IMG/VR virus record: IMGVR_UViG_3300025108_000015
Location: 114,234 to 178,233 of that record
DNA from: a virus
DNA: 64,000 bases
Direction: 5' to 3' (one strand)
In this document: positions 28,903-61,139 of the stretch, piece by piece
How positions within the stretch are numbered: position 1 is the stretch's first letter
Layout of the letters: the number at the start of each line of letters is the position of its first letter
Notes under the pieces: generated by a model
Told to the model about the DNA's origin: nothing
Databases searched by the model: none
The model's input: the letters and a program-made list of their open reading frames with translations, nothing else
Position numbers and translations under genes: made by a program

Positions 28903-31191
28903 ATGGGAAAATTAATAAACGAATGGGTAACGGAATCAATCCTTACCGAAGACATTAAAAAAACAGTGGTAACTTACGTAGGTAGGTTTCATCCATTCCA
29001 TTCTGGCCATAACGCAACATACCAACACTTAGTTAAAAAGTTTGGTAAAGATAATGTGTATATAGGTACGTCTGATAAGGTACAATTACCAAAGTCACCA
29101 TTCACTTTCAAAGAGAAAGTTAAGATAATGACTACTATGTTTGGTATTCCCAAAAATAAAATAGTAAAGGTAAAAAACCCATATTCACCAAAAGAGATTC
29201 TACAATCATTTTCAGAAGAGACTACTGCATTTATCACAGTAGTTGGTGAGAAGGACAAGAGTAGATTGGGTGGTAAATACTTTGAACCATATAAGGGTAA
29301 GGTAGAAAAGGGTTATGCTGATGTCGGTTACGTTTATGTAGCACCATCACAAGGAAACGGAATATCTGGTACTCAAGTACGTAAGGGTATGTCTGATTCG
29401 GATGAGAAATCTCGTATTAAGTTTTTCAAGTCAGTATACCCAAAGTTCAACCAAAAGATTTATGATTTAGTTTCAGGTCGTTTAATAAAAGTAGAATCCG
29501 TAATGGAATCGTTCTTACAAACATTTGATATTAATGAAATGTTATCCGAAGCTTCATCATTACCACCAAGTGGTAAGGGTATAGTAGATGATGGTCCTGG
29601 CGCTTTCTATGGTAATATGAAAACTTTTAAGAAAGAGATGAATGATGTAACTTCTACATTAGGCTGGCAAATTATATCATACCTAATGGATGATGATTCC
29701 ATGGAGTCATTTGATACATCATACCCTAATGGGTCTGGTAGATATCCGGTATCATTTTTTCCAAGTGGTGATACCATGGATGGTCAGAAAATGAGATATG
29801 GAACGGATGTAACCGGCAGACCGGGATATAAAAAGTGGGCTAAACATATTAAGAAAGTTGCCCTTCGTTTGGGTATGGAATTCGTTAAGTTTGCTGAACC
29901 AAAGGATATTGAAAATCTTACTTCTAAAATTGATAATGAAAAAACTAAAGATAAAAAAAATAATCTAAAAGAAGGTATTCTTAATGAAGGTGGTGCATAT
30001 GGTCATATGAATCACCCATTTGATATTGAGTTAGGCCTTACATTTGGTGATTTAAAAATAATAATAGATAACGCTCTAAATGGTAAGTTAGAATTTACAC
30101 GAGAAAAAACCGATGGACAAGCACTTGCTATATCATATAGAAGTGACAAAGGTATCATCGCTGCAAGAAATAAATCACATCTAAAAGATAAAGGACTTAA
30201 TGCATTAGACATTAAGGGTGTTTCAGATAAATTTGCTAATAGAGGTGGTTTGACCGATGCGTATAATTTCGCTATGAGAGATTTGGAATCTGCGATTTCA
30301 AAACTATCAAAAGCACAAAAAGAAAAAGTCTTCAAGAATGGTTCAAAGTTTATGAACATCGAAGTCATCTGGCCGGAGTCAGTAAACGTAGTACCATATG
30401 GTCAACCCCTATTAGTATTTCATGGAACTATGGAATACAACGAAAAAGGTGAAGCTATTGGAGCAGACACCTCTGATGCAAGAATCTTAGCCGGTATGAT
30501 TAAACAAGTAAATGCGGATGTACAAGATGCATATACAATACAAGGCCCTCCGGTTGTAACTCTCCCAAAGAATCAAGAACTATCAAAAATGAAATCAAAG
30601 TTCTTTAGTCAATTATCTAAAGTTCAAAAAGAATTTAAACTTAAAGATAGTGATGGTGTAGCTGAATACCATCAACGTTGGTGGGAACAGTATGTTGATA
30701 AAAACTCACCATCTTCATTAGACAACAAAACCAAAATGGGTCTTGTTAAACGTTGGGCATTTTATGATAAGGGATTCCGTTTGGATAAGAAAAACATTTC
30801 TGATTCTAAAACATTAGATTGGGCAAAGAAGACTGATAAAATAGACCAAATTAAAATATCCAAACAAAACATACGTAAGTTTGAAGATATATTCTTAGGT
30901 GTAGGTGCCGAGGTATTATCCTTTATGTCATCAGCTTTAACTGTAAATCCAGACAAAGCTCTTCGTGCAATGCAAAAACGACTCGACCAAACCATCAAAG
31001 ACGTTAGGAAATCGGGCGACCCAAAAAAGATTGAAAAATTAAAATTAGAATTAGAAAGACTAAAAGCCGTAGGTGGTAGAGATAAGATTGTTCCAAATGA
31101 GGGATTGGTATTCGCATATAAAGGATACACCATGAAACTTACAGGTACATTTGCATCACTCAACCAAATCCTTGGTTTAATGTATTTTTAA
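28903..31191 (+). CDS. Fusion of a HIGH-motif nucleotidyltransferase, a middle domain and an RNA-ligase-like nucleotidyltransferase domain
   Basis: GRFHPFHSGH (HxGH), VVGEKD and SGTQVR; C-terminal EKTDG (KxDG), ARN, NIEVI, EGLVF and MKL ligase-like motifs. Confidence 0.65.
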   Translation: MGKLINEWVTESILTEDIKKTVVTYVGRFHPFHSGHNATYQHLVKKFGKDNVYIGTSDKVQLPKSPFTFKEKVKIMTTMFGIPKNKIVKVKNPYSPKEILQSFSEETTAFITVVGEKDKSRLGGKYFEPYKGKVEKGYADVGYVYVAPSQGNGISGTQVRKGMSDSDEKSRIKFFKSVYPKFNQKIYDLVSGRLIKVESVMESFLQTFDINEMLSEASSLPPSGKGIVDDGPGAFYGNMKTFKKEMNDVTSTLGWQIISYLMDDDSMESFDTSYPNGSGRYPVSFFPSGDTMDGQKMRYGTDVTGRPGYKKWAKHIKKVALRLGMEFVKFAEPKDIENLTSKIDNEKTKDKKNNLKEGILNEGGAYGHMNHPFDIELGLTFGDLKIIIDNALNGKLEFTREKTDGQALAISYRSDKGIIAARNKSHLKDKGLNALDIKGVSDKFANRGGLTDAYNFAMRDLESAISKLSKAQKEKVFKNGSKFMNIEVIWPESVNVVPYGQPLLVFHGTMEYNEKGEAIGADTSDARILAGMIKQVNADVQDAYTIQGPPVVTLPKNQELSKMKSKFFSQLSKVQKEFKLKDSDGVAEYHQRWWEQYVDKNSPSSLDNKTKMGLVKRWAFYDKGFRLDKKNISDSKTLDWAKKTDKIDQIKISKQNIRKFEDIFLGVGAEVLSFMSSALTVNPDKALRAMQKRLDQTIKDVRKSGDPKKIEKLKLELERLKAVGGRDKIVPNEGLVFAYKGYTMKLTGTFASLNQILGLMYF

Positions 31192-31201
31192 CATACTTAT
31201 A
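31192..31201 (+). promoter_or_regulatory. Putative late promoter motif
   Basis: CATACTTATA upstream of 31228. Confidence 0.55.
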
Positions 31202-31227
31202 GTAATAAAAGTTATATATAAAAAGTT

Positions 31228-31806
31228 ATGTCAAAATTAAACAACATCAAGGCAGTCAAAGAAATGATTGCTGGAAACCACCGAACACAAACAAAGAACA
31301 CGGTGGCATTTGATGCACATAAAGAGTTCGTCAAACGAGAAGTTGGTGACCAGTGGATTGATGATGATGGAAATACATGGGAGCAGAAGAAAGGATACAA
31401 AGTAAAACTTGGTAAACTTTCGGAATTGAGAAACACACTCAAGGACTTTCCTAATTGTAAAAAAGATACGTGTACATCGCATACGAATCCAACTCGTAAC
31501 GATATTAAGATGCAGGCCATTCATGGTATGTGTCTAAATTGTGTTATTAGTATGGAACATCAAATGAAAATTGATGGTACGTATAGTGAGTATGAACGTA
31601 AAAAGAAGCTAGAAAACGCAAAAGCTTGGTTAGCCCAAGCTGAGTTGGAAAAGGATACTATAAAGTTAGCTATGAAAGCTAGGTTTGTGAATGAAGATGG
31701 GTCACTTGAAGATTGGGATGGTGGTTCATGGGAAGAGATTGAAGAAAAGATAGAAACTGAGTTTCAAAATTTTAAAGAAACCTTTATCCAAAAATTGGAG
31801 AAATAA
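31228..31806 (+). CDS. Hypothetical protein with a possible Zn-binding motif
   Basis: CKKDTC ... CLNC plus a C-terminal helical region. Confidence 0.65.
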   Translation: MSKLNNIKAVKEMIAGNHRTQTKNTVAFDAHKEFVKREVGDQWIDDDGNTWEQKKGYKVKLGKLSELRNTLKDFPNCKKDTCTSHTNPTRNDIKMQAIHGMCLNCVISMEHQMKIDGTYSEYERKKKLENAKAWLAQAELEKDTIKLAMKARFVNEDGSLEDWDGGSWEEIEEKIETEFQNFKETFIQKLEK

Positions 31807-31807
31807 A

Positions 31808-32218
31808 TTGAAAACATTTATTAAAGAAACATATAAATTCTACACCGAAGATGGTATACCTCATACATTAGCTATGGAGTATACCATTTCCGATGTTTAC
31901 GAACGACTATGTACTGAAGGTGTAATGACTGAAGATTTACGTAAGTGGTTTGGTAAAGGTAAGACTGGTTCATCAGATGGTGGTGGATGGGATAGATATA
32001 GTTCTGATGGTAAGAAGTTAGGTAAATGTGGTGATGGTAAAGAGGGTGGTGCATACGCTGCATGTTTATCAAAAGAAAAGGCTGCAAAACTTGGACCAAA
32101 GGGTAGAGCAACTTTCGTGAATAGAAAGAGACGTGCTCAAAAGAAGAGTGGCGATTCAAAAAAAGGTGGAAATCGGACTAAAGGAAAAAAACCAACAAAC
32201 TCAAAGACTGGGGCATAA
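31808..32218 (+). CDS. Basic Gly/Lys-rich putative internal head protein (TTG start)
   Basis: Starts MKTFIKE; MTE|DLRKWFG site followed by a very basic domain. Confidence 0.55.
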   Translation: MKTFIKETYKFYTEDGIPHTLAMEYTISDVYERLCTEGVMTEDLRKWFGKGKTGSSDGGGWDRYSSDGKKLGKCGDGKEGGAYAACLSKEKAAKLGPKGRATFVNRKRRAQKKSGDSKKGGNRTKGKKPTNSKTGA

Positions 32219-32221
32219 GAT

Positions 32222-32521
32222 ATGATTAAGTTAAAACAATTACTAAACGAGAGTGATTACAAGATATATCACAAATCATTTACTGCAGCATCTGAAGAAG
32301 CAAGGAAGCTTGCTGAAAAACGTGGATTCGAAATCGATGAAGACGATTGGCAGTCTCAGATTGTAATGGGTGGTCGTAACAAACGCTCAAGACCAAGTGA
32401 AGGTAAAACTACTGAGTTCACAATTAGATTACTTAAAGGTGGTAAACCACAACGTAAGTCTCTTCAAATCCAAGTATATGGTATGAAGAAGGGTTATGAA
32501 CTAAACGCATACATCAACTAA
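32222..32521 (+). CDS. Putative internal head protein
   Basis: N-terminal MIKLKQLLNE|S, matching a leader motif shared with other head-cluster ORFs. Confidence 0.6.
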   Translation: MIKLKQLLNESDYKIYHKSFTAASEEARKLAEKRGFEIDEDDWQSQIVMGGRNKRSRPSEGKTTEFTIRLLKGGKPQRKSLQIQVYGMKKGYELNAYIN

Positions 32522-32529
32522 GGGGTATT

Positions 32530-34326
32530 ATGAATACTAAACTAAATAAATCGGTTAAGAAGTTTTTAGATGATTATCTAAAAGATGAAAAAAAGAATTC
32601 GCCAGAACATCAAGAATCGGTTATGCTGATTATGAGAGGCGCCTTAACTGACGCTAACTTTCATAGTGAAGCAAAACAATTAGGTAAATACTTTCCAAAA
32701 GCAGGTAAGAAATACATTGGTACACCAATGGAAGATGTGATTGAAAGTAAGGGTATTGCTATTGCTAAAGCTGCAAAGTGGGATGGTCATGATATCATTG
32801 ACGCATTTGCATTTTACCTAAGTATGTCAATTGGTGGTTCATTCGGAAATAGATTGATGTCACTAAAAGAATCAATTGAAGAGTCATTAGTTGAAGAGGG
32901 TGAAAAGTTAGACGAGAAGAATGTACCAACTAACCCATCTAAATGGGCTTACTATAAAGCACAAGCAAAGAAGAAGTTTGACGTATACCCATCAGCATAT
33001 GCAAATGGTTGGGCTTCAAAACAATACAAAAAAGCTGGTGGTGGTTGGAAGACTGAATCAGTAAACGAAGGTATGGTAAGTCCAAGTAAAGGGCATGCTT
33101 ACTATAAGTTGAGTAAAGACACCCCAATCAAATATGTATCAGGTCATTATGGAGTCGGATTAAAAGTTCCTGGTGTATTACTTCATAACGAATATGATAC
33201 AATCAAAGGTCAGAAGGGTGCTTACATTATCAATTACTTCAATCAACATTTCTATGTGGATATTAAAAACAAATTTGCATCAAGAATTGCCCATCCAGAT
33301 AATAAAGAGCAAAATAAAGATTTGAAAAAAAATATGCAGTTCTCGGCAGTTGCACCTGACCACAAAGATTGGAAGAAATATGTGAAGGAATCAGTAAACG
33401 AAGGTTATGGTAAATTCATTAAAGCTAAAAACCTTACTGATATCATTAAATTATCAAAGCAAAAGAAAAACGCAACATTCTATGTAACTGATGATAACAA
33501 TTCTCGTATTGGTGCATTTTATTTAAAGAATGGTAAGTTTGCTAAAGCAACTACTGCAAACCCTAGCTATGATTTACAAAATAACAAAACTAAGTTAAGA
33601 GATAGAAGTGATGTAATCTACAAGTATAAAGTAGACGAATCAGTAAACGAAGCTAAGGATAAAGTATTTGTAGTGATGTTTAAGGTCAAAAAAGATTTAC
33701 CCAATAGAAGTGTAAAACCATCTTCAGCTGTATATGCAAAAGAAGCTGATGCTAAGAAATTCTTAAAATCGGTTGAGAAAGATGGTGGTAAGGGAATGAT
33801 TGTAAAGTCTAATAAACCCGTTGGTGTAAAGGTAAATGAAGCTGCAACAAGAACTGCTGTGGAAATTGGTGGTTTGACCGGTGTGAATAAAGATGCTATC
33901 CAAAAGTTTGTTGATGATAACAAATTAGACATTGAGAAAGTATACCAATTCGTTAAGAAAGGTAAACTTGCTGATAGAATGAAGTTAGTATCTGCAATCG
34001 CAGGTAAACCTAATAACCCAGTTCAAAAGAAGATGGTTAAACAATTCGGTGAAGGTATCATCAAAGAAGCAAAAGTAAGATTGGGTAAAGACTCAGTAAA
34101 CTTCAAAGTGATGGGTGACTCAAAGGGATTGACCCTAATCGCTGCAAGTGGTAATGACTTAGATGGTCTTCAAGATGCAATTGAAAATAATGTTGATGTG
34201 AAAGAAGAATTGAGAAAGACACTTGAGAAACAACTTAAAGTTCCAGTTGAAGTGGATAGAGATTACGATGGTGCTGGTTTTAGATTCAACATTGACTTTT
34301 ACTCATTGGCTAAAAAGGTAAAGTAA
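32530..34326 (+). CDS. Putative internal-head polyprotein of about 7 modules separated by ESVNE / x-x-E linkers
   Basis: LDE|K, ESVNE|G (twice), ESVNE|A, VNE|A and IKE|A boundaries between unrelated Lys-rich modules. Confidence 0.65.
   Translation: MNTKLNKSVKKFLDDYLKDEKKNSPEHQESVMLIMRGALTDANFHSEAKQLGKYFPKAGKKYIGTPMEDVIESKGIAIAKAAKWDGHDIIDAFAFYLSMSIGGSFGNRLMSLKESIEESLVEEGEKLDEKNVPTNPSKWAYYKAQAKKKFDVYPSAYANGWASKQYKKAGGGWKTESVNEGMVSPSKGHAYYKLSKDTPIKYVSGHYGVGLKVPGVLLHNEYDTIKGQKGAYIINYFNQHFYVDIKNKFASRIAHPDNKEQNKDLKKNMQFSAVAPDHKDWKKYVKESVNEGYGKFIKAKNLTDIIKLSKQKKNATFYVTDDNNSRIGAFYLKNGKFAKATTANPSYDLQNNKTKLRDRSDVIYKYKVDESVNEAKDKVFVVMFKVKKDLPNRSVKPSSAVYAKEADAKKFLKSVEKDGGKGMIVKSNKPVGVKVNEAATRTAVEIGGLTGVNKDAIQKFVDDNKLDIEKVYQFVKKGKLADRMKLVSAIAGKPNNPVQKKMVKQFGEGIIKEAKVRLGKDSVNFKVMGDSKGLTLIAASGNDLDGLQDAIENNVDVKEELRKTLEKQLKVPVEVDRDYDGAGFRFNIDFYSLAKKVK
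33055..33652 (+). repeat. Three identical 16-nt direct repeats GAATCAGTAAACGAAG encoding ESVNE
   Basis: Copies at 33055-33070, 33388-33403 and 33637-33652, in frame, flanking unrelated modules. Confidence 0.9.
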
Positions 34327-34327
34327 G

Positions 34328-35197
34328 ATGACTAAAACACAACTCAAGGAATTAATCAGAGAAGAATACCATAACGTAAAAGACTTTATGGAAGATAAGT
34401 ATGGTTTTACTCCTGAGCTGGGTAAGGTCATTGACAACCCATATGTATCATCATTTAAAAATGAAGCTACATATTCAAGTGGATTATATATGATACTTGA
34501 CAAAGATGGTAAAGTCGTTGATAAGGGTCTTGAAAGTAATATGTGGTATTCCTTTGAAAAATATAGAGGTAAAGGAACACACTATATCGTATCAAAGAAA
34601 AACCTAAGTAAAGCACAATCACTTATCAAAAAATATCAGTCAGACCTTAGTAATACTAAGTTCAGAGATTCGATGTTTAAATTGTACAAGGAATCAGTAT
34701 CAACTGAAGCGTTATCAGATTATGAAAAAGATGGTGCTGACTACGAACAATTATACAAAGATTACTTATACTCTAAGAAGAGAAAAACCGAAGGTGATGA
34801 AGTAATCGATGAGTATGATGTTGATACTATTGAAGAGACGACTGATTTCATAAACTTTATGAAAGAATACTCTCAGATGTTAAATTTACATAAAGAGCAG
34901 AATAGTGATATCTACGCACTAAACCCAACACTTGATGAAGCAGAGTATCAAGGTCGTGACGTAAAACTTGGTAAACCAATGCAAGGTGATGTTAAGAAGT
35001 TTAAAGTATACGTAAAGAATCCAAAGGGAAATGTTGTAAAGGTAAACTTCGGACATGGTGGAACATCTGCAAAGGGTAAAACAATGTCTATCAAAAAGAA
35101 TGACCCTGCGAGACGTAAGGCATTTAGAGCAAGACATAATTGTGATAATCCTGGACCACGACATAAAGCTAGATATTGGTCTTGTCGTAAGTGGTAA
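34328..35197 (+). CDS. Putative internal-head polyprotein with a C-terminal basic Cys/His domain
   Basis: Leader MTKTQLKELIREE; FKNE|A, STE|A and LDE|A sites; C-terminal RRKAFRARHNC ... ARYWSC. Confidence 0.6.
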   Translation: MTKTQLKELIREEYHNVKDFMEDKYGFTPELGKVIDNPYVSSFKNEATYSSGLYMILDKDGKVVDKGLESNMWYSFEKYRGKGTHYIVSKKNLSKAQSLIKKYQSDLSNTKFRDSMFKLYKESVSTEALSDYEKDGADYEQLYKDYLYSKKRKTEGDEVIDEYDVDTIEETTDFINFMKEYSQMLNLHKEQNSDIYALNPTLDEAEYQGRDVKLGKPMQGDVKKFKVYVKNPKGNVVKVNFGHGGTSAKGKTMSIKKNDPARRKAFRARHNCDNPGPRHKARYWSCRKW

Positions 35198-35216
35198 CTT
35201 AATTAACTCCGAGTTA

Positions 35217-35226
35217 CATACTTATA
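35217..35226 (+). promoter_or_regulatory. Putative late promoter motif
   Basis: CATACTTATA upstream of 35258. Confidence 0.55.
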
Positions 35227-35257
35227 TAAACAAGTAAGTTTAACAAAAGAGAGAATT

Positions 35258-35575
35258 ATGACAAAACTTAAAAATTGGTTCATCGGTCTATGGAATAGAT
35301 TATTGAACAAAACTACCATTGATGAACAAATCATGGAAACAGTAGCAGATGCAAAGGAAAAGCTAGAATCAGTTAAAGAAGAGTTTGCTGATGTAGCAGA
35401 AGAACTTAAAGACGTAATGTCGGCCATTAAGGGAAAGGTTACTAAAAGTAAACTTCGTTCGATGACAAAAGTACAAATGCTTGAAGCTGCTAAAAAAGAC
35501 CACAATGTTGATTTGGATTCTAAACTAAACAAGACGAATCTAATTAATAAAGTTTACGAACTTTACAACAAGTAA
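35258..35575 (+). CDS. Small protein with a C-terminal HeH/Rho-N-like motif
   Basis: MTKVQMLEAAKK ... LDSKLNKTNLINKV helix-extension-helix pattern; amphipathic N-terminus. Confidence 0.5.
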   Translation: MTKLKNWFIGLWNRLLNKTTIDEQIMETVADAKEKLESVKEEFADVAEELKDVMSAIKGKVTKSKLRSMTKVQMLEAAKKDHNVDLDSKLNKTNLINKVYELYNK

Positions 35576-35578
35576 TTT

Positions 35579-36160
35579 GTGAGAAATTATTTCGGAGATA
35601 TCAAGACCCTTCTGATAGTAGTATTAGGAGTTATTATATTTTTGACACGTGGTTGTCAGAACGGGTCTGATATTACCGAACCACAAGTTATTACTGAAGT
35701 AGTCACAAAATGGGATACTGTACAAATTGAAAAAACCAAGTACATCCCAAAGGTAGTGGAGAAGGTAGTAGTTAATATTGATACATTTACTACACCAATT
35801 GATACATTATCAGTATTAAAAGATTATTACGCAAAATACTTTTATACTGACACTATTATTATAGATTCGCTAGGTTATGTTACTATTAACGATACGATAA
35901 CACGTAACCTAATTTCATTTAGAGATGTTCAATCCGAAATACTCATCCCAACAACTACAATTACTAATACTGTTTACATCAACAAACGTGAACTCTATGT
36001 GGGTACTACGTTAAATGGTGACCGAACTCAATTATATAACTTGAGCGGTAATCTTTTATACAAAACAAAAAAACGTAATGTATATAATATTGGGGTAGGT
36101 GTAGATAGTGACTTCAAGCCCGTTTACACAATTGGTATGTATTGGAAGTTTGGTAAATAA
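35579..36160 (+). CDS. Membrane-anchored or lipoprotein-like protein (GTG start)
   Basis: LLIVVLGVIIFLTRGC hydrophobic segment ending in Cys; C-terminal amphipathic beta strands ending GMYWKFGK. Confidence 0.55.
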   Translation: MRNYFGDIKTLLIVVLGVIIFLTRGCQNGSDITEPQVITEVVTKWDTVQIEKTKYIPKVVEKVVVNIDTFTTPIDTLSVLKDYYAKYFYTDTIIIDSLGYVTINDTITRNLISFRDVQSEILIPTTTITNTVYINKRELYVGTTLNGDRTQLYNLSGNLLYKTKKRNVYNIGVGVDSDFKPVYTIGMYWKFGK

Positions 36161-39716: not shown

Positions 39717-40562
39717 ATGGCCAAATTAAAACACAGCAAGTTTAAAAATACGGGTATTCTATTTGAATTACTCGTAAAGCAAATCGCATCCGATACACTT
39801 GCGAACAAAGATTCTCTTGCCTTGGAAATAATAAAGAAACATTTCAAAAGAGGTACTGAATTAAACAAAGAGTTAAAATTGTATCAATCTTTAACTAAAG
39901 AAAACTTCGATAACCAATATCAGGCTCAGGAGTTTTTAAATATTGTATTGGAAGAACGTGGTAGTTTAAATGAGGGTATTCTTCGTAGACAAAAGTATAA
40001 TTTGATTAAATCAATCAAAGAGTCATTTGTTATGGAGGACTTCTTTAAATATCGTGTTACTAATTATCGTGAAATGGCATCGGTTTACAAAATGTTTGAA
40101 AATACAAGTTTGACATCTCCAAAAGAGTACGTTACTTGTAAAAATACAATACTCGAAGTAATCACTAAATCAAATGTTGAGATTGTAACTGAATCTGATA
40201 ATACTGAGTATAACAACCAATCTAAAGAAGTTAGGTTGTTGGCTTATAAGTTCTTGGTTGAATCATTTAACTCAAAGTACACAACTTTATCAGAAGAACA
40301 AAAGATGATTTTAAAGAATTATATCAACAACGTTGATAATTCAACTAAATTAAAGTCATTTGTTATAACTGAAGTTAAGAAACTAAAGAAAAGTTTCAAA
40401 GCAGTAGATGTATCGGATAAAGTAGCACAAATAAAACTAAATGAAACTGTAAATCTTATTGATAACATTACAAATTCTAAAATAATCAATGAGAATCAGA
40501 TTTTATCTCTTCTAAGATATCATGAACTTTTACAAGAGTTACGGAGGGTTTCAAATGTCTAA
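39717..40562 (+). CDS. Head-cluster hypothetical protein
   Basis: Helical ORF between the portal and prohead protease genes. Confidence 0.7.
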   Translation: MAKLKHSKFKNTGILFELLVKQIASDTLANKDSLALEIIKKHFKRGTELNKELKLYQSLTKENFDNQYQAQEFLNIVLEERGSLNEGILRRQKYNLIKSIKESFVMEDFFKYRVTNYREMASVYKMFENTSLTSPKEYVTCKNTILEVITKSNVEIVTESDNTEYNNQSKEVRLLAYKFLVESFNSKYTTLSEEQKMILKNYINNVDNSTKLKSFVITEVKKLKKSFKAVDVSDKVAQIKLNETVNLIDNITNSKIINENQILSLLRYHELLQELRRVSNV

Positions 40563-41085
40563 ATTCTTACTAGAACAATTGGAAGGTAAGTTTGAAGAGC
40601 TGGAGTCAATCGAAACTCTTAAAGAGGAAGAGGTAGATGAGGCTAATGTAACATCTAATATGGATGGGGGAGCAGGCCCACCTAAAACTCCTAACGCATT
40701 TGCAAAGAGTGAAGATGAAGATGATTTGGATACTGACCACATAGAGGTACTTGGTTATAAAAAACCAAAGAAAACAAAAAAGATAAATACGGAGTCTAAA
40801 ACTATGAAGAAATTAGAAGATAAGCTAGAACGTATAATCGAAGCTACTTATAGAGATTACAAAAAAGATGACTCTATGAAGGCACATCAAAAAGTAAATA
40901 AATCTATCAAAGAGATTAATCGAATGATGTACGAAGTTGAAAAGATTGTAAATCAGAACACTAAGTTAAAAAATGAAATGGGTGTATCTAATGAACAATA
41001 TTGGAAGTCTACACAAAAAAGATTCGGTAAGATTTCAGAAAGAATGTTAAAAGTTGCTCGTAACTTAAAAGAATTGAGCGCATAG
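40555..41085 (+). CDS. Head-cluster protein (possible prohead core component)
   Basis: ATG at 40555 with GGAGG SD preferred over 40522; VDE|A site, acidic N-half and coiled-coil C-half. Confidence 0.65.
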   Translation: MSKFLLEQLEGKFEELESIETLKEEEVDEANVTSNMDGGAGPPKTPNAFAKSEDEDDLDTDHIEVLGYKKPKKTKKINTESKTMKKLEDKLERIIEATYRDYKKDDSMKAHQKVNKSIKEINRMMYEVEKIVNQNTKLKNEMGVSNEQYWKSTQKRFGKISERMLKVARNLKELSA

Positions 41086-41228: not shown

Positions 41229-41867
41229 ATGAAACAACTACTTGTAGATACAATGATATTTGAAGTAACACCTACTATGTTACAAGAAGCAAAGGACCAG
41301 ACTGGTCGTTTCTTAGTAAATGGTGTGTTACAACGTGCTGATGCTAAAAACCAAAATGGTAGAGTGTATCCACGTAACATCTTAGAACGTGAAGTAAAGA
41401 AATACCAAGGACGTGAAATCAAAGAGAATCGTGCTTATGGTGAATTGGACCATCCTGAAAGTGGTGTAGTCGAATTAAAGAACACATCACACATTATCCG
41501 TGAAGTATCATGGAATGGTGATGATGTTGTTGGAACAGTTGAAATACTAAATACACCAGCTGGAAAGATTTTACAAGAATTAGTAAAAGCTGGGTGTACT
41601 GTTGGTATCTCGTCAAGAGGTATGGGTTCCGTAAAACAAATTGGTGAAGACACCGTCGCAGTAGAACAAGACTTTGATTTGATATGTTGGGACTTTGTTT
41701 CTAACCCATCAACTCATGGAGCATTTCTCTCACCAACAAACGAGGGTACGATAAACGAATCGGTTACTGTTAAAAAGAATACTTATAAATACAATAAAGC
41801 TAACAATATGATGAGAGACATCATGTGTGAGGTTGGTGGATATTGTGAATGTGATTTTGGAGTATAA
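41229..41867 (+). CDS. Prohead core protein protease (T4 gp21-like)
   Basis: NQNGRVYP, GELDHP, GISSRGMGS and DFVSNPS; start at 41229 (MKQLL) preferred over 41175. Confidence 0.92.
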   Translation: MKQLLVDTMIFEVTPTMLQEAKDQTGRFLVNGVLQRADAKNQNGRVYPRNILEREVKKYQGREIKENRAYGELDHPESGVVELKNTSHIIREVSWNGDDVVGTVEILNTPAGKILQELVKAGCTVGISSRGMGSVKQIGEDTVAVEQDFDLICWDFVSNPSTHGAFLSPTNEGTINESVTVKKNTYKYNKANNMMRDIMCEVGGYCECDFGV

Positions 41868-42844
41868 TGAAAAATTTAAAAGAACTACTAAACGAATCTA
41901 CATACAAACGTATGAAGATAAACGATGAAGAAACCCAAAAGGGAATGACTAACGAAGAAAAGCGTGAATTCCTTAAAGCTGTTTCTGAATACAAGAAATT
42001 CGGTGAGTCAATCTATCGTTCAGGTAATTTGGGAGAAGTATACGAATCTATTAAAGGTATCGTAGAGACTGCACACAAGGTAACTCTTGAGGAAACTGGA
42101 GATTGGTTTGACAAGGTAACTGTTGGTAGACACATGAAGTCTATGAATGAGTCATTCAAAGTATTTACTAATACAATCAAAGAAGTAAATACCCTACAAC
42201 AAAGACTTGAGTCTTGTTACGATGAGATGGGTGAAGTTCTTGGTAAGTATTACGAAATCAAAGAAGGTAACGAATTCGGCGCTGCAAGAGCGAAAGCAAT
42301 TGCTAATGGTGATGATGAGTTCGAAGTAGATGGTAAAGAATTTCCAGTAAAAGACGTTGATAAGGACGACAAGGAAAACGCTAAAGAATTCGCTAAAGAA
42401 TCTGTAAATGAAGAATCGTCAATGAAGCTAACTGATATACTAAGTGAAAACAAATACTCAATCATAGACCCAAAGGGAAACCAAAAGGGTATTGGTACCA
42501 AAGACCAAGCAAATAAACTACAAAAGAAATTAGGTGGTTCTAAAAAAGGATACTTTGTAGTTGCTGCTAAATCGGCATTGAAAGCCAGAAGAGCAATGGA
42601 AAAGTATCAGTTTGATTTTAAAAACCCTAAACTTCAAGATAAGATGTCTGACCTTTACTTTGAATCAGTAACCGAAGATATTATTGGAGAAGGTGCTTCT
42701 AGCGAAGAAAAAAGAATTGTGATGTTGGCAGTTCGTAAAATATCAAAATATCGTCAAGTACCAATTAATATATCAGTTGTAGATGTATTAAGAGCTGCAG
42801 AAGAACTTGAAAGAGATATCAAAAAAGGTAAGGTTAAGAAATAA
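41867..42844 (+). CDS. Putative internal head/core polyprotein
   Basis: Leader MKNLKELLNE|S; internal IKE|G, ESVNE|ESSMKLTDILSE|N and ESVTE|DIIGE|G. Confidence 0.6.
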   Translation: MKNLKELLNESTYKRMKINDEETQKGMTNEEKREFLKAVSEYKKFGESIYRSGNLGEVYESIKGIVETAHKVTLEETGDWFDKVTVGRHMKSMNESFKVFTNTIKEVNTLQQRLESCYDEMGEVLGKYYEIKEGNEFGAARAKAIANGDDEFEVDGKEFPVKDVDKDDKENAKEFAKESVNEESSMKLTDILSENKYSIIDPKGNQKGIGTKDQANKLQKKLGGSKKGYFVVAAKSALKARRAMEKYQFDFKNPKLQDKMSDLYFESVTEDIIGEGASSEEKRIVMLAVRKISKYRQVPINISVVDVLRAAEELERDIKKGKVKK

Positions 42845-43076: not shown

Positions 43077-43334
43077 ATGTCATACAAACGAGAAAAAAAA
43101 GTAAGAAAAGAACGTGAGGAGTTATTCCTATATGGTCATGCTAATGGTGTAAGGGTTATTAATAATAACATTGAAGCAGCACTTAGAAAGTGGAAACGTA
43201 TTATGAAAGATAATGGTGTAATTGACCTTATCAAGCAAAATAGGGAATACACTAAACCGACTACACGTAAACGTAAACAAATGAATGATGCTAGACGAGC
43301 TGATTGGGTCCGTAGACAACAAGAAGCAAGATAA
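43077..43334 (+). CDS. rpsU: Phage-encoded 30S ribosomal protein bS21 homolog with an N-terminal extension
   Basis: VRVINNNIEAALRKWKR ... REYTKPTTRKRK fits the bS21 pattern; the position among terL/portal/core/MCP matches described bS21 phages. Confidence 0.85.
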   Translation: MSYKREKKVRKEREELFLYGHANGVRVINNNIEAALRKWKRIMKDNGVIDLIKQNREYTKPTTRKRKQMNDARRADWVRRQQEAR

Positions 43335-44577: not shown

Positions 44578-46176
44578 ATGAACACAAATTCTCTATTAAA
44601 CGAATCTGCTGGTTTCAACAAAAAAATGAGCGAAGAGGCTAAAGGCCTTGTAGCCAAGTGGGAAAAAACTGGTCTTTTGGAAGGCGTTGACGCTGACTTC
44701 GAAAGAGCAAGTATTGCTACATTGTTGGAAAACCAAGCAAAGCAATTAGTATCTGAAGCATCAAGCACAGGTACTGCTGCAAACTCTGAAGAGTGGGCCG
44801 GTGTCGCTCTTCCATTAGTAAGACGTATCTTCAGCGAAATCGCTGCAAAAGAATTCGTCTCAGTACAACCAATGAACCTACCTTCAGGTCTTGTATTCTA
44901 TCTTGACTTCAAGTATGGTACTCCTCAGCCGGGTTTCGAAACTGGTGCTGGTAAGAATTCACAAACTGATTCAGTATTCGGTGTTACCGAAGTTGCTGGT
45001 GACGTTTCTGAAGGTCTTTATGGTGCAGGTCGTTTCGGATACTCTATCAATGAAGATGAGTCTGCTGCACAAGAGTTGGAAGCTGCTGTTGGAACAAACG
45101 ATTACGCTACTGCATCGTTGGCAATGTCTGACATCAACTACGATTCAGCATTCTCTCAATCAGTATGGGCTGTTCACGATACTGACCTCGTAACTGTTGC
45201 TATTCAAACTGCGTCTATCGCAAACTTCGATAGTGAAGGTGTACGTGCATTCTCACTCGAAGGTGTTGACGAGTACTACGCTGAGTACACTCGTTTAGCT
45301 GGTGAAAACATCGTATTCGTTGCTCGTGATACTGCATTTGGTAATGTAACTGTTAAATATCAGAAACAACCAACTGACATCACTCGTGGTGACTTCGAAG
45401 ACAAAACTGGTGCTGACATAGGTATTCCAGAATTGAACGTAGAGCTACGCTCTGTACCAATCGTTGCTAAGACTCGTAAGTTGAAAGCACAATGGACGCC
45501 GGAATTCGCTCAAGATTTGAACGCATACCACTCAATCGATGCTGAAGCTGAATTGACTTCAATGTTGTCTGAATACGTATCTCAAGAAATCGACCTCGAA
45601 ATCTTAGATATGTTGATGGAAAACGCATTGACTGAAGGTCACTGGTCTGCTAAAGTAGGTTCTTCATGGAATGGTTCAGCATTTACTGCACCTGCAGCAA
45701 ATGACGTACAACGTTACACTCAACAACAATGGTTCCAAACTCTTGGTACTGTTCTTCAGAGAGTATCTAACCAAATTCATGCTAAGACCATGAGAGGTGG
45801 AGCTAACTTTATGGTAGTTTCTCCTGACGTTGCAACTATCTTGGAATCAATCCCAGGATTTGCTGCTAATGGTACTGGTGCTGATATGCAATTCGCAATG
45901 GGTGTATCTCAAGTAGGTTCATTCGCGAATCGTTACCAAGTATACAAAAACCCATATTTGACATCTAATGTCGTATTGATGGGCTTCAAGGGTGCTCAAT
46001 TCTTGGAAACTGGCGCAGTTTACGCTCCATACATTCCATTAATCATGACTCCGTTGGTATATGACCCAACAAACTTCACTCCAAGAAAAGGTGTAATGAC
46101 ACGTTACGCTAAGCAAATGGTAAGAGGTGAGTTCTACGGTAAGGTATACGTTAATGGTTTAGAAACACTCGCATAG
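44578..46176 (+). CDS. Major capsid protein (T4 gp23-like)
   Basis: VSVQPMNLPSGLVFYL, AKTRKLKAQWTPEFAQDLNAYH..DAEAEL, YAPYIPL and PRKGVMTRYA; probable maturation site LVSE60|A61. Confidence 0.96.
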   Translation: MNTNSLLNESAGFNKKMSEEAKGLVAKWEKTGLLEGVDADFERASIATLLENQAKQLVSEASSTGTAANSEEWAGVALPLVRRIFSEIAAKEFVSVQPMNLPSGLVFYLDFKYGTPQPGFETGAGKNSQTDSVFGVTEVAGDVSEGLYGAGRFGYSINEDESAAQELEAAVGTNDYATASLAMSDINYDSAFSQSVWAVHDTDLVTVAIQTASIANFDSEGVRAFSLEGVDEYYAEYTRLAGENIVFVARDTAFGNVTVKYQKQPTDITRGDFEDKTGADIGIPELNVELRSVPIVAKTRKLKAQWTPEFAQDLNAYHSIDAEAELTSMLSEYVSQEIDLEILDMLMENALTEGHWSAKVGSSWNGSAFTAPAANDVQRYTQQQWFQTLGTVLQRVSNQIHAKTMRGGANFMVVSPDVATILESIPGFAANGTGADMQFAMGVSQVGSFANRYQVYKNPYLTSNVVLMGFKGAQFLETGAVYAPYIPLIMTPLVYDPTNFTPRKGVMTRYAKQMVRGEFYGKVYVNGLETLA

Positions 46177-57404: not shown

Positions 57405-60400
57405 ATGGAATTAATACACGGTTTACATAAAGATACCTTAATAGACATCAATGGGAGTCTCCAAAATATTGGTGACATACAACCGGGTGACGTAGTAAAA
57501 GGTTTTGAAATAAAAAGTGGTGTCGTAAGAGACAATAAAGTTGTTTGGGTAAAAACATCAACAATCGGCTCTTACATTGAATTCACCCTTTCAGATGGTT
57601 CTAACGTAAAATCATCAGTTGATGCTAAAATCTTAACCCTAATGGGTGAGTGGGTTTCACCAATAAATGCATTCAACAAACAAAAAGAATTACACAACGA
57701 CCTACACATTACCTCATTAAGGTATGTAGAAGAATCGTTAGATATTATAAGTATAGAGGTAGAGCCTGACCACAATTACTATGTAGGTAAATTACTATTC
57801 CACAATACGGGTCCAACTGGTCCAGCTGGTCTAAAGGGTCAAAAAGGAGAAGCTGGTAATAAAGGTGTTACTGGAGCTCAAGGACCTCAAGGTGCACAGG
57901 GTCAAAAGGGAGCTACTGGTTCACAAGGACCTGGTGGTTCTACCGGCCCAACCGGACCTCAAGGCCCAACTGGTAACAATGGTGTAACTGGTCCTAAAGG
58001 TGCAACTGGCCCAACCGGCCCCAAAGGTTCAACAGGCCCTCAAGGTGGAACAGGCCCTCAAGGTGCTAAAGGTGTAAACGGACCTACTGGTTTAACTGGC
58101 CCTCAAGGTGCTCAAGGGAATGCCGGTCCTAAAGGTCAAAAAGGAGCTACTGGCTCACAAGGTGGAACTGGTGCTACAGGTGGAAAGGGTTCCACTGGTT
58201 CAAAAGGACCACAAGGTGCTGATGGCCCTCAAGGTGCTAAAGGCCCACAAGGTGCTACTGGCCCACAAGGTGATAAAGGTCAAAAAGGTGCAACTGGCTC
58301 AACCGGTCCTCAAGGTGGAGTAGGTCCACAGGGTGGAGCAGGCCCACAAGGTGCTACTGGCCCACAAGGTGGAACTGGTCCAACAGGCCCTAAAGGTCAA
58401 AAAGGAGCTACCGGCTCACAAGGTGGAACTGGCGCAACAGGTCCTCAAGGTGCTGATGGTCCTCAAGGTGCAACTGGCCCTAAAGGTGCTACTGGCCCAC
58501 AAGGTGCTACTGGCCCACAAGGTGGAAAAGGTCAAAAAGGAGCTACCGGCTCACAAGGTGGAAAAGGTTCACAAGGTGCTAAAGGTGTAAACGGACCTAC
58601 TGGTTTAACTGGCCCTCAAGGTGCTCAAGGAAATCCCGGCCCTAAAGGTGCAACAGGAGCTACTGGCTCACAAGGTGGAACTGGTGCTCAAGGTGGAAAA
58701 GGTTCTACTGGCTCAACTGGCCCACAAGGTGCTGCTGGCCCACAAGGTGCTAAAGGCCCACAAGGTGCTACTGGCCCACAAGGTGGAAAAGGTCAAAAAG
58801 GTGCAACTGGTTCAACCGGTCCTCAAGGTGGGGTAGGTCCTCAAGGTGGAGCAGGCCCACAAGGTGCTACTGGCCCACAAGGTGATACTGGCCCAACAGG
58901 CCCTAAAGGTCAAAAAGGAGCTACCGGCTCACAAGGTGCAACTGGCCCAACAGGACCTCAAGGTGCTGATGGTCCTCAAGGTGTAACTGGCCCTCAAGGT
59001 GCTACTGGCCCTCAAGGTGCTACTGGCCCACAAGGTGGAAAGGGTCAAAAAGGAGCTACCGGCTCACAAGGTGGAAAAGGTTCACAAGGTGCTAAAGGTA
59101 TAAACGGACCTACTGGTTTAACTGGCCCTCAAGGTGCTCAAGGAAATCCTGGCCCTAAAGGTCAAAAAGGAGCTACTGGCTCACAAGGTGGAACTGGTGC
59201 TCAAGGTGGAAAAGGTTCTACTGGCTCAACTGGCCCACAAGGTGCTGCTGGCCCACAAGGTGATAAAGGTCCACAAGGTGCTACTGGCCCACAAGGTGAT
59301 AAAGGTCAAAAAGGTGGAACTGGCTCAACAGGCCCTCAAGGTGGAGTGGGTCCTCAGGGTGGAGCAGGCCCACAAGGTGCTACTGGCCCACAAGGTGATA
59401 CTGGCCCAACCGGTCCTAAAGGTCAAAAAGGAGCTACTGGCTCACAAGGTGCAACTGGTCCAACAGGACCTCAAGGTGCTGATGGTCCTCAAGGTGCAAC
59501 TGGCCCTCAAGGTGCTACTGGCCCTCAAGGTGCTACTGGCCCACAAGGTGGAAAGGGTCAAAAAGGAGCTACCGGCTCACAAGGTGGAAAAGGTTCACAA
59601 GGTGCTAAAGGTGTAAACGGACCTACTGGTTTAACTGGCCCTCAAGGTGCTCAAGGAAATCCCGGCCCTAAAGGTGCAACAGGAGCTACTGGCTCACAAG
59701 GTGGGACTGGTGCTCAAGGTGGAAAAGGTTCTACTGGCTCAACTGGCCCACAAGGTGCTGCTGGCCCACAAGGTGCTAAAGGTCCACAAGGTGCTACTGG
59801 CCCACAAGGTGATAAAGGTCAAAAAGGTGGAACTGGCTCAACAGGCCCTCAAGGTGTAGTAGGTCCTCAAGGTCAAACAGGCCCTCAAGGTGGGACAGGC
59901 CCACAAGGTGATACTGGCCCAACAGGCCCTAAAGGTCAAAAAGGAGCTACTGGCTCACAAGGTGCAACTGGCGCAACCGGTCCTCAAGGTGATACCGGCC
60001 CACAAGGTGCGGTAGGTCCAACCGGTCCAACTCAACCAAAAGGTCAAAAGGGAGCTACTGGCTCACAAGGTGCAACTGGTCCAACAGGACCTCAAGGTGC
60101 TGATGGCCCTCAAGGTGCAACTGGCCCACAAGGTGATAAAGGCCCACAAGGTGCTACTGGCCCACAAGGTGATAAAGGTCAAAAAGGTGGAACAGGCGCA
60201 GATGGTGGTAAAGGTCAACAAGGTGACCAAGGTGCTCAAGGTTTAACAGGTGGAACAGGCCCACAAGGTGACCAAGGTGCTCAAGGTGATACCGGCCCTC
60301 AAGGTGATAAAGGTCAAAAAGGTCAAACTGGCCCTCAAGGTGCTGATGGCCCTCAAGGTGCTGATGGCCCTCAAGGTGCTACTGGCCCACAAGGTGATAA

Positions 60401-61139
60401 AGGTCCTCAAGGTGTAACTGGCCCACAAGGTGATAAAGGTCAAAAAGGTCAAACCGGCCCAGATGGTGAAAAGGGTCAACAAGGTGACCAAGGTGCAACT
60501 GGTCCAACTGGTGGAACAGGCCCACAAGGTGACCAAGGTGCTCAAGGTGATACCGGCCCTCAAGGTGATAAAGGTCAAAAAGGTCAAACTGGCCCTCAAG
60601 GTGCTGATGGCCCTCAAGGTGCTGATGGCCCTCAAGGTGCTACTGGCCCACAAGGTGATAAAGGTCCTCAAGGTGTAACTGGCCCACAAGGTGATAAAGG
60701 TCAAAAAGGTCAAACCGGCTCAGATGGTGAAAAGGGTCAACAAGGTGACCAAGGTGCAACTGGTCCAACTGGTGGAACAGGCCCACAAGGTGACCAAGGT
60801 GCTCAAGGTGATACCGGCCCTCAAGGTGATAAAGGTCAAAAAGGTATAACTGGCCCTCAAGGTGTTGCTGGCCCTCAAGGTGATACTGGTTCCCAAGGTA
60901 ATGTGGGTCCTCAAGGTGATAAAGGTCAAAAAGGTCAAACTGGATTTGAAGGTGCTAAAGGTCAAAAAGGTCAAACCGGCCTACAAGGCTCTAAAGGTCA
61001 AAAAGGTATTTCTGCTCTTGGTACACTAATTAGTGGTGTATCACCTGGATTGACGTGGGATACTACAAGAGGTGTACTTAAATTTAATAATGGTGGTAGT
61101 ACTTATGTACTTCATATGTACGTAAGTGGTTCATACTAA
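57405..61139 (+). CDS. Hint-domain (intein-like, no Cys1) collagen-like fibre protein
   Basis: aa 1-134 Hint-like ([17 protein letters not shown] ... [20 protein letters not shown]|T); aa 136-1203 Gly-X-Y; 41-aa C-terminal cap. Confidence 0.85.
58050..59960 (+). repeat. Higher-order 513-nt (171-aa) tandem repeat in collagen 1, about 3.7 copies
   Basis: Marker GACCTACTGGTTTAACTGGC at 58081, 58594, 59107 and 59620. Confidence 0.9.
60080..60850 (+). repeat. Higher-order 261-nt (87-aa) tandem repeat in collagen 1, about 3 copies
   Basis: Marker GATGGTG..AA.GGTCAACAAGG at 60201, 60462 and 60723. Confidence 0.85.

Follow-up and report, generated by a model that had tools for sequence, protein, structure and literature searches.

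A chain of exchangeable cassettes in a marine T4-like phage, candidate polyprotein cargo for the phage head

The open reading frame (ORF) at positions 32530-34326 of the DNA analyzed here (a window of 64,000 nucleotides, corresponding to bases 114,234-178,233 of the IMG/VR virus IMGVR_UViG_3300025108_000015) encodes a chain of seven small modules, three of which end in an identical 16-nucleotide repeat that specifies the peptide ESVNE. The source is a complete 178,233-bp virus with direct terminal repeats and 36% G+C; it is an uncultured marine T4-like phage, whose large terminase (TerL) is 57-58% identical to the homologues of Flavobacterium phage vB_FspM_immuto (hereafter immuto) and Microcystis phage Mel-JY01, the terminases of T4-like cyanophages being more distant kin. 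We regard it as fairly probable that this phage has three or four polyproteins as head cargo, ORF 32530-34326 encoding one of them, and that this one would be cut at its joints by the S77-family prohead protease encoded in the same window.

Modules and joints of the polyprotein

The repeat, GAATCAGTAAACGAAG, is present in three exact copies in the ORF, at 33055, 33388 and 33637 (spacings of 333 and 249 nucleotides), each of which lies in frame and spells out ESVNE, its last base (G) opening the codon that follows. A first-pass annotation of this DNA had reported three such copies without synonymous change, and exact matching bears this out. When up to three mismatches are allowed, the window holds 10 matches where 0.62 are expected, a number reached by none of 100 shuffles, and the only copies in the 178-kb genome that differ by at most one base are these three exact ones and a fourth with one mismatch at 42662, which encodes ESVTE. 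Likewise, the peptide ESVNE occurs four times in a proteome of 55,197 residues, against an expectation of 0.07. Since the flanks of the three copies are mutually unrelated, the repeats are not remnants of a larger duplication. An assembly artefact was also considered and rejected, because the repeat is shorter than assembly k-mers and because independent contigs from other samples (L007 and L010; loci of relatives are cited by our L or P numbers) carry the same seven-module ORF, at 84-97% nucleotide identity per module. The ORF is laid out as follows, a slash marking the joint.

32530-34326, + strand: polyprotein A, 598 residues, modules M1-M7, with boundaries from the ends of homologue matches and from relatives
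32530-32916, + strand: M1, residues 1-129, acidic domain of six predicted helices, ending in KLDE/K (degenerate joint)
32917-33069, + strand: M2, residues 130-180, small basic module, ending in ESVNE
33055-33070, + strand: linker repeat copy 1, GAATCAGTAAACGAAG, ESVNE/G
33070-33402, + strand: M3, residues 181-291, basic domain predicted to be beta-rich, ending in ESVNE
33388-33403, + strand: linker repeat copy 2, ESVNE/G
33403-33651, + strand: M4, residues 292-374, basic, ending in ESVNE
33637-33652, + strand: linker repeat copy 3, ESVNE/A
33652-33840, + strand: M5, residues 375-437, basic, ending in KVNE/A
33841-34068, + strand: M6, residues 438-513, the most widespread module, ending in IIKE/A (degenerate joint)
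34069-34323, + strand: M7, residues 514-598, C-terminal module

This division was obtained from homologues. A phmmer search against 1.84 billion cluster representatives (clusters at 50% identity) returned 2,101 matches at E <= 1e-3, 1,119 of them at E <= 1e-10, that share a module with the ORF, and the stretches matched begin and end near residues 1, 120-129, 175-181, 283-293, 374-378, 430-438, 506-514 and 598, that is, at the predicted boundaries. In particular, the ends at residues 129, 437 and 513 agree with the LDE/K, VNE/A and IKE/A boundaries proposed in the first-pass annotation, which gives seven modules of 129, 51, 111, 83, 63, 76 and 85 residues from M1 to M7. As judged from these comparisons, the beads-on-a-string build of the ORF can be taken as established. 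The modules had further been described as Lys-rich, and indeed five of the seven have an isoelectric point (pI) of 9.5-10.0; the median pI of module families is 9.3, against 5.9 for the ORFs of the genome.

Pairwise ratios of nonsynonymous to synonymous substitution (dN/dS) have medians of 0.14-0.34 across all seven modules (0.24 for M1, 0.14 for M2, 0.22 for M4 and 0.34 for M7), with a median dS near 1 between homologous modules. When folded singly with AlphaFold2 (AF2), M1 was predicted as six helices (predicted local distance difference test, pLDDT, 89.9; predicted template modelling score, pTM, 0.85) and M3 as a beta-rich domain (pLDDT 81.4, pTM 0.75), at the end of which the terminal SVNE has a pLDDT of 28, against 81 for the domain, as in a disordered linker. 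The modules are therefore real, functional proteins, as purifying selection, basic charge and two confident folds attest. Almost none of them has a recognizable family or fold: no significant match came from Pfam, PDB sequences, Foldseek or VIA, PHROGs likewise gave nothing usable, and a Pfam scan of 98 module representatives produced six weak single matches only. Foldseek found no significant PDB match for M1 (best E 2.0) or M3 (best E 0.25), and a wide VIA-align search with M1 reached at best a Z of 6.4, to Dps/ferritin-like four-helix bundles, which lies under the noise level for helical bundles. M2 matches phrog_27331 over 23 residues (E = 7.7e-7) and, weakly, DUF5872 (16.4 bits, below the Pfam cut-off of 27.5), and in the ESM Atlas M6 matched only unnamed viral clusters (score 0.80).

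The linker is conserved both as DNA and as peptide. The exact GAATCAGTAAACGAA is found at about 65% of 102-104 ESVNE sites in distinct sequence contexts and, when each junction type is counted once, at 49 of 74 ESVNE types (66%), where the codon usage of the same ORFs would give 5.3%; the linker DNA, described at the outset as identical, is in fact conserved far beyond what the peptide needs. For Val, GTA is the sole codon (background 50%); AGT is absent from the Ser codons (background 18%), and AAC makes up 84% of the Asn codons (background 40%). Outside the 15-mer plus one base the information content is at background, conservation ending at the 16th base, and the ESVTE, ESINE and ESVSE joints are one-nucleotide derivatives of the core 15-mer. 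As a control, at conserved pentapeptides in orthologous positions within modules the most frequent 15-mer accounts for a median of 50% of contexts, so that linkers at unrelated junctions behave like one orthologous DNA site. Similarly, immuto, with a TerL 57% identical, carries GAATCAGTAAATGAAG and GAATCATTAAACGAAG. Taken together, these codon-level comparisons establish the conservation of the linker DNA, and reading that DNA as a recombination handle appears reasonable. ESIDE and ESVDE joints, for their part, differ from the core at 4-8 of 15 nucleotides, AGT Ser codons included, and such persistence in diverged DNA shows that selection acts on the peptide itself as well.

Cassette exchange among relatives and host genes

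From a comparative perspective, the first-pass annotation had proposed a chain of swappable modules, and relatives do differ in both the content and the order of their modules, the opposite of the invariant order with diverged linkers that it had named as the contrary outcome. Among the best 150 of the 2,101 phmmer matches, we count 31 module combinations, with one holding all seven modules and 25 in changed order; these 150 proteins contain 237 ESVNE motifs (3.7 per 1,000 residues), at a median linker spacing of 80 residues. With TerL as bait, we collected 80 loci (TerL 86-100% identical), split the homologous ORFs at the linker motif and clustered the pieces. The 79 homologous polyprotein ORFs so cut yielded 422 segments, which fall into 106 families and about 45 architectures, with up to about 10 modules per ORF. 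They display 156 distinct left-right junction types, and 29 of 86 families have at least two right-hand neighbors (maximum nine).

Individual relatives illustrate each kind of change. Compared with polyprotein A, L012 has two additional modules, L013 lacks M3-M5 and has three others instead, and L047 places M6 ahead of M3 in an ORF that is fused to a gene of the 34328 type (see below). In L026, the order is M1-M2-M4-X-Y-M6-M7, and M3 is missing by a precise linker-to-linker difference of one module: its first junction combines the left flank of joint 1 of the window (41 of 45 nucleotides) with the right flank of joint 2 (39 of 45). More generally, blastn homology ends inside a linker in 18-19% of cases against 4.4% for random positions, with peaks at the first base and at +16. 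In the comparison with L007, the DNA of M3 is 84% identical while the neighboring modules are 94-97% identical, which fits the replacement of a single module. M1 frequently stands at internal positions in other polyproteins, and hence is a module rather than a leader; M3 is the first module, with its own Met, in L043; M6 occurs in 80 of the top 150 cluster representatives, and in relatives its end boundary is ESVNE or ESINE.

The same linker crosses larger evolutionary distances. In a distant clade (L093, L099 and L115), the portal and the protease are only 50-57% identical to those of the window, yet the identical 16-mer is found, and shared modules are 74-94% identical while core proteins are about 52% identical; this high identity of modules despite the divergence of portal and protease suggests that cassettes pass between lineages. 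Close relatives of ORF 32530 were found only in metagenomes, and a tblastn search of the ORF against 50,697 phage records gave a single partial match, that of M2 in S-BM3 (OQ319121.1). There, a T4-GC119 protein of 337 residues encoded just after terS (L203:2024-3037) fuses four modules without ESVNE linkers, homologous respectively to the module of ORF 31808, to M2, to a "PCWxGY..VPNCVP" module of the relatives and to the C-terminal module of ORF 34328. A cultured relative does exist in immuto, where gp079 (L001:6981-9506, 841 residues) is syntenic, upstream of TerL, and has ESVNE and ESLNE joints, which read ..NESVNE/G.. and ..KESLNE/D.., and several further [VIL]NE sites, encoded by nearly identical DNA.

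Cassettes are also hosted by other genes, four types of which hold shared module families: 32530, 34328, 41867 and, in the distant clade, the homologue of 40522-41085. Besides polyprotein A, the window contains the following members or single-module counterparts of these genes, the joints of which include the related linkers that had been pointed out nearby (ESVSTE in polyprotein B, ESVNE and ESVTE in polyprotein C).

34328-35197, + strand: polyprotein B, 289 residues, with a 45-residue leader ending in SFKNE/A, an ESVSTE joint and a C-terminal module (phrog_7595)
41867-42844, + strand: polyprotein C, 325 residues, with the leader MKNLKELLNE/S, an ESVNE joint at 42398-42413 and an ESVTE joint at 42662-42677
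32222-32521, + strand: single module, 99 residues, with a cleavable-type leader, MIKLKQLLNE/S
40522-41085, + strand: gene directly upstream of the protease, without cassettes here, a cassette host in the more distant clade

In relatives, genes of the 34328 type carry three to nine cassettes between a constant 45-residue leader (ending in SF[VK]NE) and a constant C-terminal module, and the family of M4 (family 10) is found in both A-type and 34328-type polyproteins. Genes of the 41867 type hold cassettes that are also found in polyprotein A (family 51, in L012 and L026, and family 8), and, in L093, L099 and L115, homologues of 40522-41085 bear ESVNE-joined modules between their N- and C-terminal parts. 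In polyprotein C itself, the ESVNE joint at 42398 has two synonymous changes relative to the repeat and the ESVTE joint at 42662 a single mismatch. On the basis of these sequence comparisons, the conclusion that relatives have acquired, lost and reordered modules and transferred them between four genes of the head region, the exchange points lying at the linker, is strongly supported, and the exchange pattern as such can be considered established; recombination within the repeat would be its cause.

Certain modules exist both as beads and as genes of their own. The module of ORF 32222, which starts with MIKLKQLLNE/SDYKIYHKSF, is the last bead of the chains in L071, P0009 and P0010, where it follows ..SVNE/AQYQVYHKSF or ..ESINE/DYYKS, and family 8 occurs within three polyprotein types as well as alone, as MDKLINLLNE/SSITKSVNE/GKHD.., in L045. 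Lone modules sit behind a leader of about 10 residues, M-x-KLK-x-LLNE, the end of which aligns with the joint of the fused forms; that the same module may be a single gene or a bead indicates that leader end and linker end are equivalent positions. The M-x-KLK-x-LLNE/S leader also heads ORF 41867, and a similar SLLNE/S opens the capsid protein. Just past the ESVNE joint of polyprotein C, an internal SMKLTDILSE/N (42413-42445) resembles the retained leader of a formerly separate gene, and in L050, L052 and L078 the part that matches this region is a separate ORF starting with MIKLKKLINE/S.

Candidate cut sites and the head-cargo reading

The head genes that bear on the fate of the joints are listed below.

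37817: portal
39717 and 40522: two unnamed genes between portal and protease
41229-41867, + strand: prohead protease of the T4 gp21 family (S77), with ATG 41229 as the likely start codon and TTG 41175 as that of the listed ORF
43486: acidic scaffold-like protein
44578-46176, + strand: major capsid protein (gp23-like, from the annotation of immuto), with candidate protease sites in the N-terminal propeptide

The gp21 homolog that the first-pass annotation placed at 41229 is confirmed: the product of 41175/41229-41867 matches Peptidase_S77 (PF03420, E = 2.9e-31) and phrog_207 (E = 3.2e-52), and its gene lies between the portal and the scaffold/capsid genes. T4 gp21 cleaves after L/I-x-E, an Asp in place of that Glu blocking the processing (PMC9026906), and its relatives in giant phages cleave after S/A-x-E, always after Glu (PMC5694885). 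In the ORF, V-N-E is found at all three repeats and again at residues 435-437, with I-K-E at 511-513 and L-D-E at 127-129, so that the joints fit a rule of an aliphatic residue at P3, any residue at P2 and Glu at P1, in which Val at P3 relaxes the T4 rule. Of 180 joints, 77% are followed by G, A or S. Hence, the motif fits the S77/gp21 rule in a phage that encodes such a protease, as the linker had been read from the outset, and the assignment of the joints as candidate S77 sites appears well supported.

Other proteins of the head carry similar sites. The protease of the window and its homologues in L007-L086 have a conserved [IL]-[NK]-E/[SG] site directly behind the catalytic domain and, beyond it, a conserved tail rich in Cys (..MRDI.CEVGGYCECDFGV), which is possibly a self-removed, metal-binding or targeting tail; C-terminal self-cutting is known for prohead proteases, and the tail site matches it (PMC5694885). 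The propeptide of the capsid protein contains the conserved candidate sites SLLNE/S and LV[SK]E/A. The second of these (LV[SK]E/AS) lies 35 residues ahead of a VQPMN motif, at what we take to be the position where T4 gp23 is cut. As a separate observation, L073 (IMGVR_UViG_3300020430_000092) has, beside the usual protease of 210 residues, a second and diverged S77-like ORF (194 residues, GISSRGMGSVEPIGNGKVRV..), which recalls the protease paralogue reported in SPN3US.

On this basis, we propose that the gene would be translated late, as a string of small, autonomous and mostly basic domains, the timing being suggested by the tight same-direction operon, which extends from 28903 to 36160, up to TerL (36169), and on through the portal, the protease, ORF 41867 and the scaffold-like gene to the capsid gene (44578). 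The chain would enter the core of the assembling prohead, where the gp21-type S77 protease would cut after the last Glu of each E-S-[VIL]-[NTSD]-E joint, as the motif and the precedents of T4 and phiKZ suggest, and the freed proteins of 6-15 kDa would remain associated with the DNA and pass into the host on infection. The joint peptide would then be the cut site, and the joint DNA, as a nearly invariant 15-16-mer, the in-frame exchange point of the cassettes. Packaging and ejection of the modules are plausible by analogy with known phages, and a role of the payload in host takeover or counter-defense, like that of T4 internal proteins, is a speculation suggested by the combination of high turnover and purifying selection. 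A bolder version, in which the dual-purpose joint (cut site and universal in-frame exchange site) would define an integron-like cassette system for capsid-delivered proteins, through which many marine T4-like lineages trade host-takeover or anti-defense mini-proteins from a pool of thousands of modules, is offered tentatively, and we believe the odds to be somewhat against it.

Several points weigh against this head-cargo reading. The N-terminus of ORF 32530, MNTKLNKSVKKFLDDYLKDE, is devoid of [LIV]-x-E, and hence of a leader like the capsid targeting sequence (CTS) of T4, so that its product would have to reach the prohead in another way; recognition of the repeated joints by a core-bound protease is one speculative route. 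The E-S at P5-P4 of the joint exceeds the known needs of gp21-type proteases and could reflect the DNA repeat. As regards the repeat itself, 15-16 nucleotides are short for efficient homologous recombination, linker variants have no significant association with the left module, the right module or the genome (conditional entropies resemble those of shuffles), and the uniformity of the repeat may come from copying together with the cassettes instead of from use as a crossover site. The linker-free fusion in S-BM3 indicates that some modules are of old date, occur in cyanomyoviruses too and need not be variable cargo. Moreover, the locus upstream of TerL is syntenic with the gp16-gp17 interval of cyanomyoviruses, a known hot spot of accessory genes (PMC3037559), so that proximity to the large terminase is weak evidence of a location in the head; a stronger argument is the presence of these modules and linkers in genes between portal, protease and scaffold as well. 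Finally, the literature yielded no virion mass spectrometry for this clade.

These points lend themselves to other explanations. The chain could work uncleaved, as a multi-domain protein acting in the virion or in the infected cell, with ESVNE as an inter-domain spacer that is kept as an in-frame shuffling point. Such a protein would resemble those polyvalent proteins, the N4 virion RNA polymerase and ArdC among them, which are transferred unprocessed (PMC5512222), and it would agree with the four related modules fused without such linkers in S-BM3 and with a repeat whose DNA-level conservation shows that it matters as DNA. We nevertheless find this unlikely, for the order and number of modules are essentially free, which would not be expected of several domains that cooperate as one machine, the modules are also encoded as separate genes with a short leader whose terminal hydrophobic-N-E aligns with the joint, and the peptide pattern persists where the DNA differs at 4-8 of 15 nucleotides; in addition, the motif agrees with the protease family of the phage, as does the small residue that follows, when a spacer would more likely be variable and rich in Gly, Ser or Pro. 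Still less probable, in our estimation, is that the prohead protease cuts the chain into disposable core or scaffold filler, expelled or degraded, the variability of which would reflect weak constraint. T4 does cut its core proteins gp22, gp67 and gp68 to fragments that leave the head (PMC5694885), and cassettes do occur inside genes at T4 core-gene positions, between portal, protease and scaffold. Filler, however, would hardly form discrete conserved families under purifying selection (dN/dS 0.14-0.34 at a dS of about 1), two of the modules having confident globular folds, or stay 74-94% identical between lineages whose core proteins are at about 52%; pieces of 6-15 kDa far exceed the short peptides that escape T4 heads, and their basic charge suits retention with DNA.

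The 16-mer could also be mainly a nucleic-acid signal (a target of a site-specific nuclease or recombinase, a signal for RNA processing or translation, or a set of internal restarts yielding separate products), to which the peptide would be incidental. Its codon choice is nearly fixed, it contains TAA in the +1 frame, and one joint of the window is followed by GGT ATG with AAGG just upstream; but an ATG follows only one of the three window joints, divergent DNA versions retain the peptide pattern, the repeat is always in the same frame within long ORFs, a promoter and terminator scan of the repeat gave counts no higher than the shuffled expectation, and no enzyme for such a site was identified. 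We consider this explanation very improbable, and retain cleavage of the chain into head cargo as our preferred reading.

Known systems and gene neighborhood

The nearest functional analogue would be the T4 internal proteins IPI, IPII and IPIII together with Alt, the CTS of which is removed by gp21. As in T4, a gp21-family (S77) protease gene stands beside those of portal and scaffold, the cargo proteins are small and for the most part basic and vary strongly from one related phage to the next, and ORFs 32222 and 41867 have a leader of about 10 residues that ends in hydrophobic-x-Glu, like a CTS. In the T4 literature, the CTS is viewed as letting T4-like phages load varied proteins under an arms race (PMC9026906, PMC3012670). 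Unlike T4, where each cargo has its own gene and undergoes one N-terminal cut, up to about 10 units are found here per ORF with the motif repeated between them, ORF 32530 is leaderless, and the joint is also a conserved DNA repeat; nor did the ORF or the 98 module representatives give any Pfam or PHROG match indicating homology to IPI, IPII, IPIII or Alt. In phiKZ, 201phi2-1 and SPN3US, S80 prohead proteases process inner-body or ejection proteins (PMC5694885, PMC10052503). As is proposed here, many head-internal proteins of these phages are cleaved behind the Glu of a three-residue motif, a substrate being cut more than once, and the protease removes its own C-terminus. However, the extra cuts of the phiKZ group dice long propeptides for clearance and leave one mature protein per gene, whereas here each piece appears to be a separate conserved domain, and neither cassette shuffling nor a linker repeat at the DNA level is described for phiKZ, 201phi2-1 or SPN3US.

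Polyvalent proteins likewise place unrelated domains in one polypeptide of a phage or conjugative element, which is predicted to travel with the invading DNA; they have 2-15 such domains, which are highly combinatorial and in some cases released by proteolysis (PMC5512222). The seven modules of polyprotein A and the 31 combinations among the best 150 representatives recall this organization, but polyvalent proteins use recognizable domains (MPTase, ART, ParB, ArdC-N), often with an embedded peptidase, whereas a single stereotyped linker joins all beads here and the presumed protease would act in trans. None of the polyvalent repertoire (zincin-like MPTase hub, ART, ParB, ArdC-N, primases, nucleases) was found in the Pfam scan of the 98 module representatives. 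With regard to exchange, PeSL (promoter/stem-loop) cassettes mediate modular shuffling in T4-type genomes (PMC2839356, PMC4122927), and, as with PeSLs, variable cassettes are bounded by a short DNA repeat that marks the end points of insertion, deletion and replacement. PeSLs, though, are intergenic, regulatory and about 50 nucleotides long, and flank whole genes, whereas the present repeat is coding, in frame and 15-16 nucleotides long, and every exchange preserves a single reading frame and restores the joint peptide. Polyproteins of RNA viruses and retroviruses are similar in that one product would be resolved into separate proteins by a viral protease at repeated short motifs (cleavage being predicted here), but they hold a fixed set and order of essential proteins, when both vary freely here and cutting would take place inside the capsid precursor. 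A chain of unrelated cargo units with one stereotyped cut motif whose coding DNA is also the exchange point was not found described in the literature.

If the joints are indeed cut in the prohead, they would offer a general way for a single gene to load many unrelated proteins into the capsid, and for the assortment to change while reading frame and cut site stay intact, extending the T4 idea of a CTS and internal proteins from single genes to a combinatorial cassette array. The reading would also imply a very large pool of small, conserved and unannotated proteins (at least 2,101 clusters share a module with the ORF), which would probably act as infection begins, when anti-defense and host-takeover factors are expected. 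From an applied perspective, it would supply a design rule taken from nature (module, ESVNE, module), by which T4-like capsids could be loaded with foreign proteins, and the cultured Flavobacterium phage immuto, which has the same motif, is a ready experimental model.

Other genes of the window are of interest in their own right. In the same operon as the polyproteins, the 762-residue ORF at 28903-31191 has a nucleotidyltransferase-type HxGH motif and a leader-like N-terminus (MGKLINE..VTE/S); the syntenic gene of immuto is annotated as a NadR-like nicotinamide mononucleotide (NMN) adenylyltransferase, and the product may be another protease-processed virion protein. After ORF 41867 comes a bS21-like gene (43077-43334), an ORF of 85 residues that resembles ribosomal protein bS21, at a place where Mel-JY01 is correspondingly annotated with RpsU. 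Further downstream, the window contains two very long collagen-like ORFs with G-x-y repeats (57405-61139 and 61158-63998), each with a non-collagen N-terminal domain.

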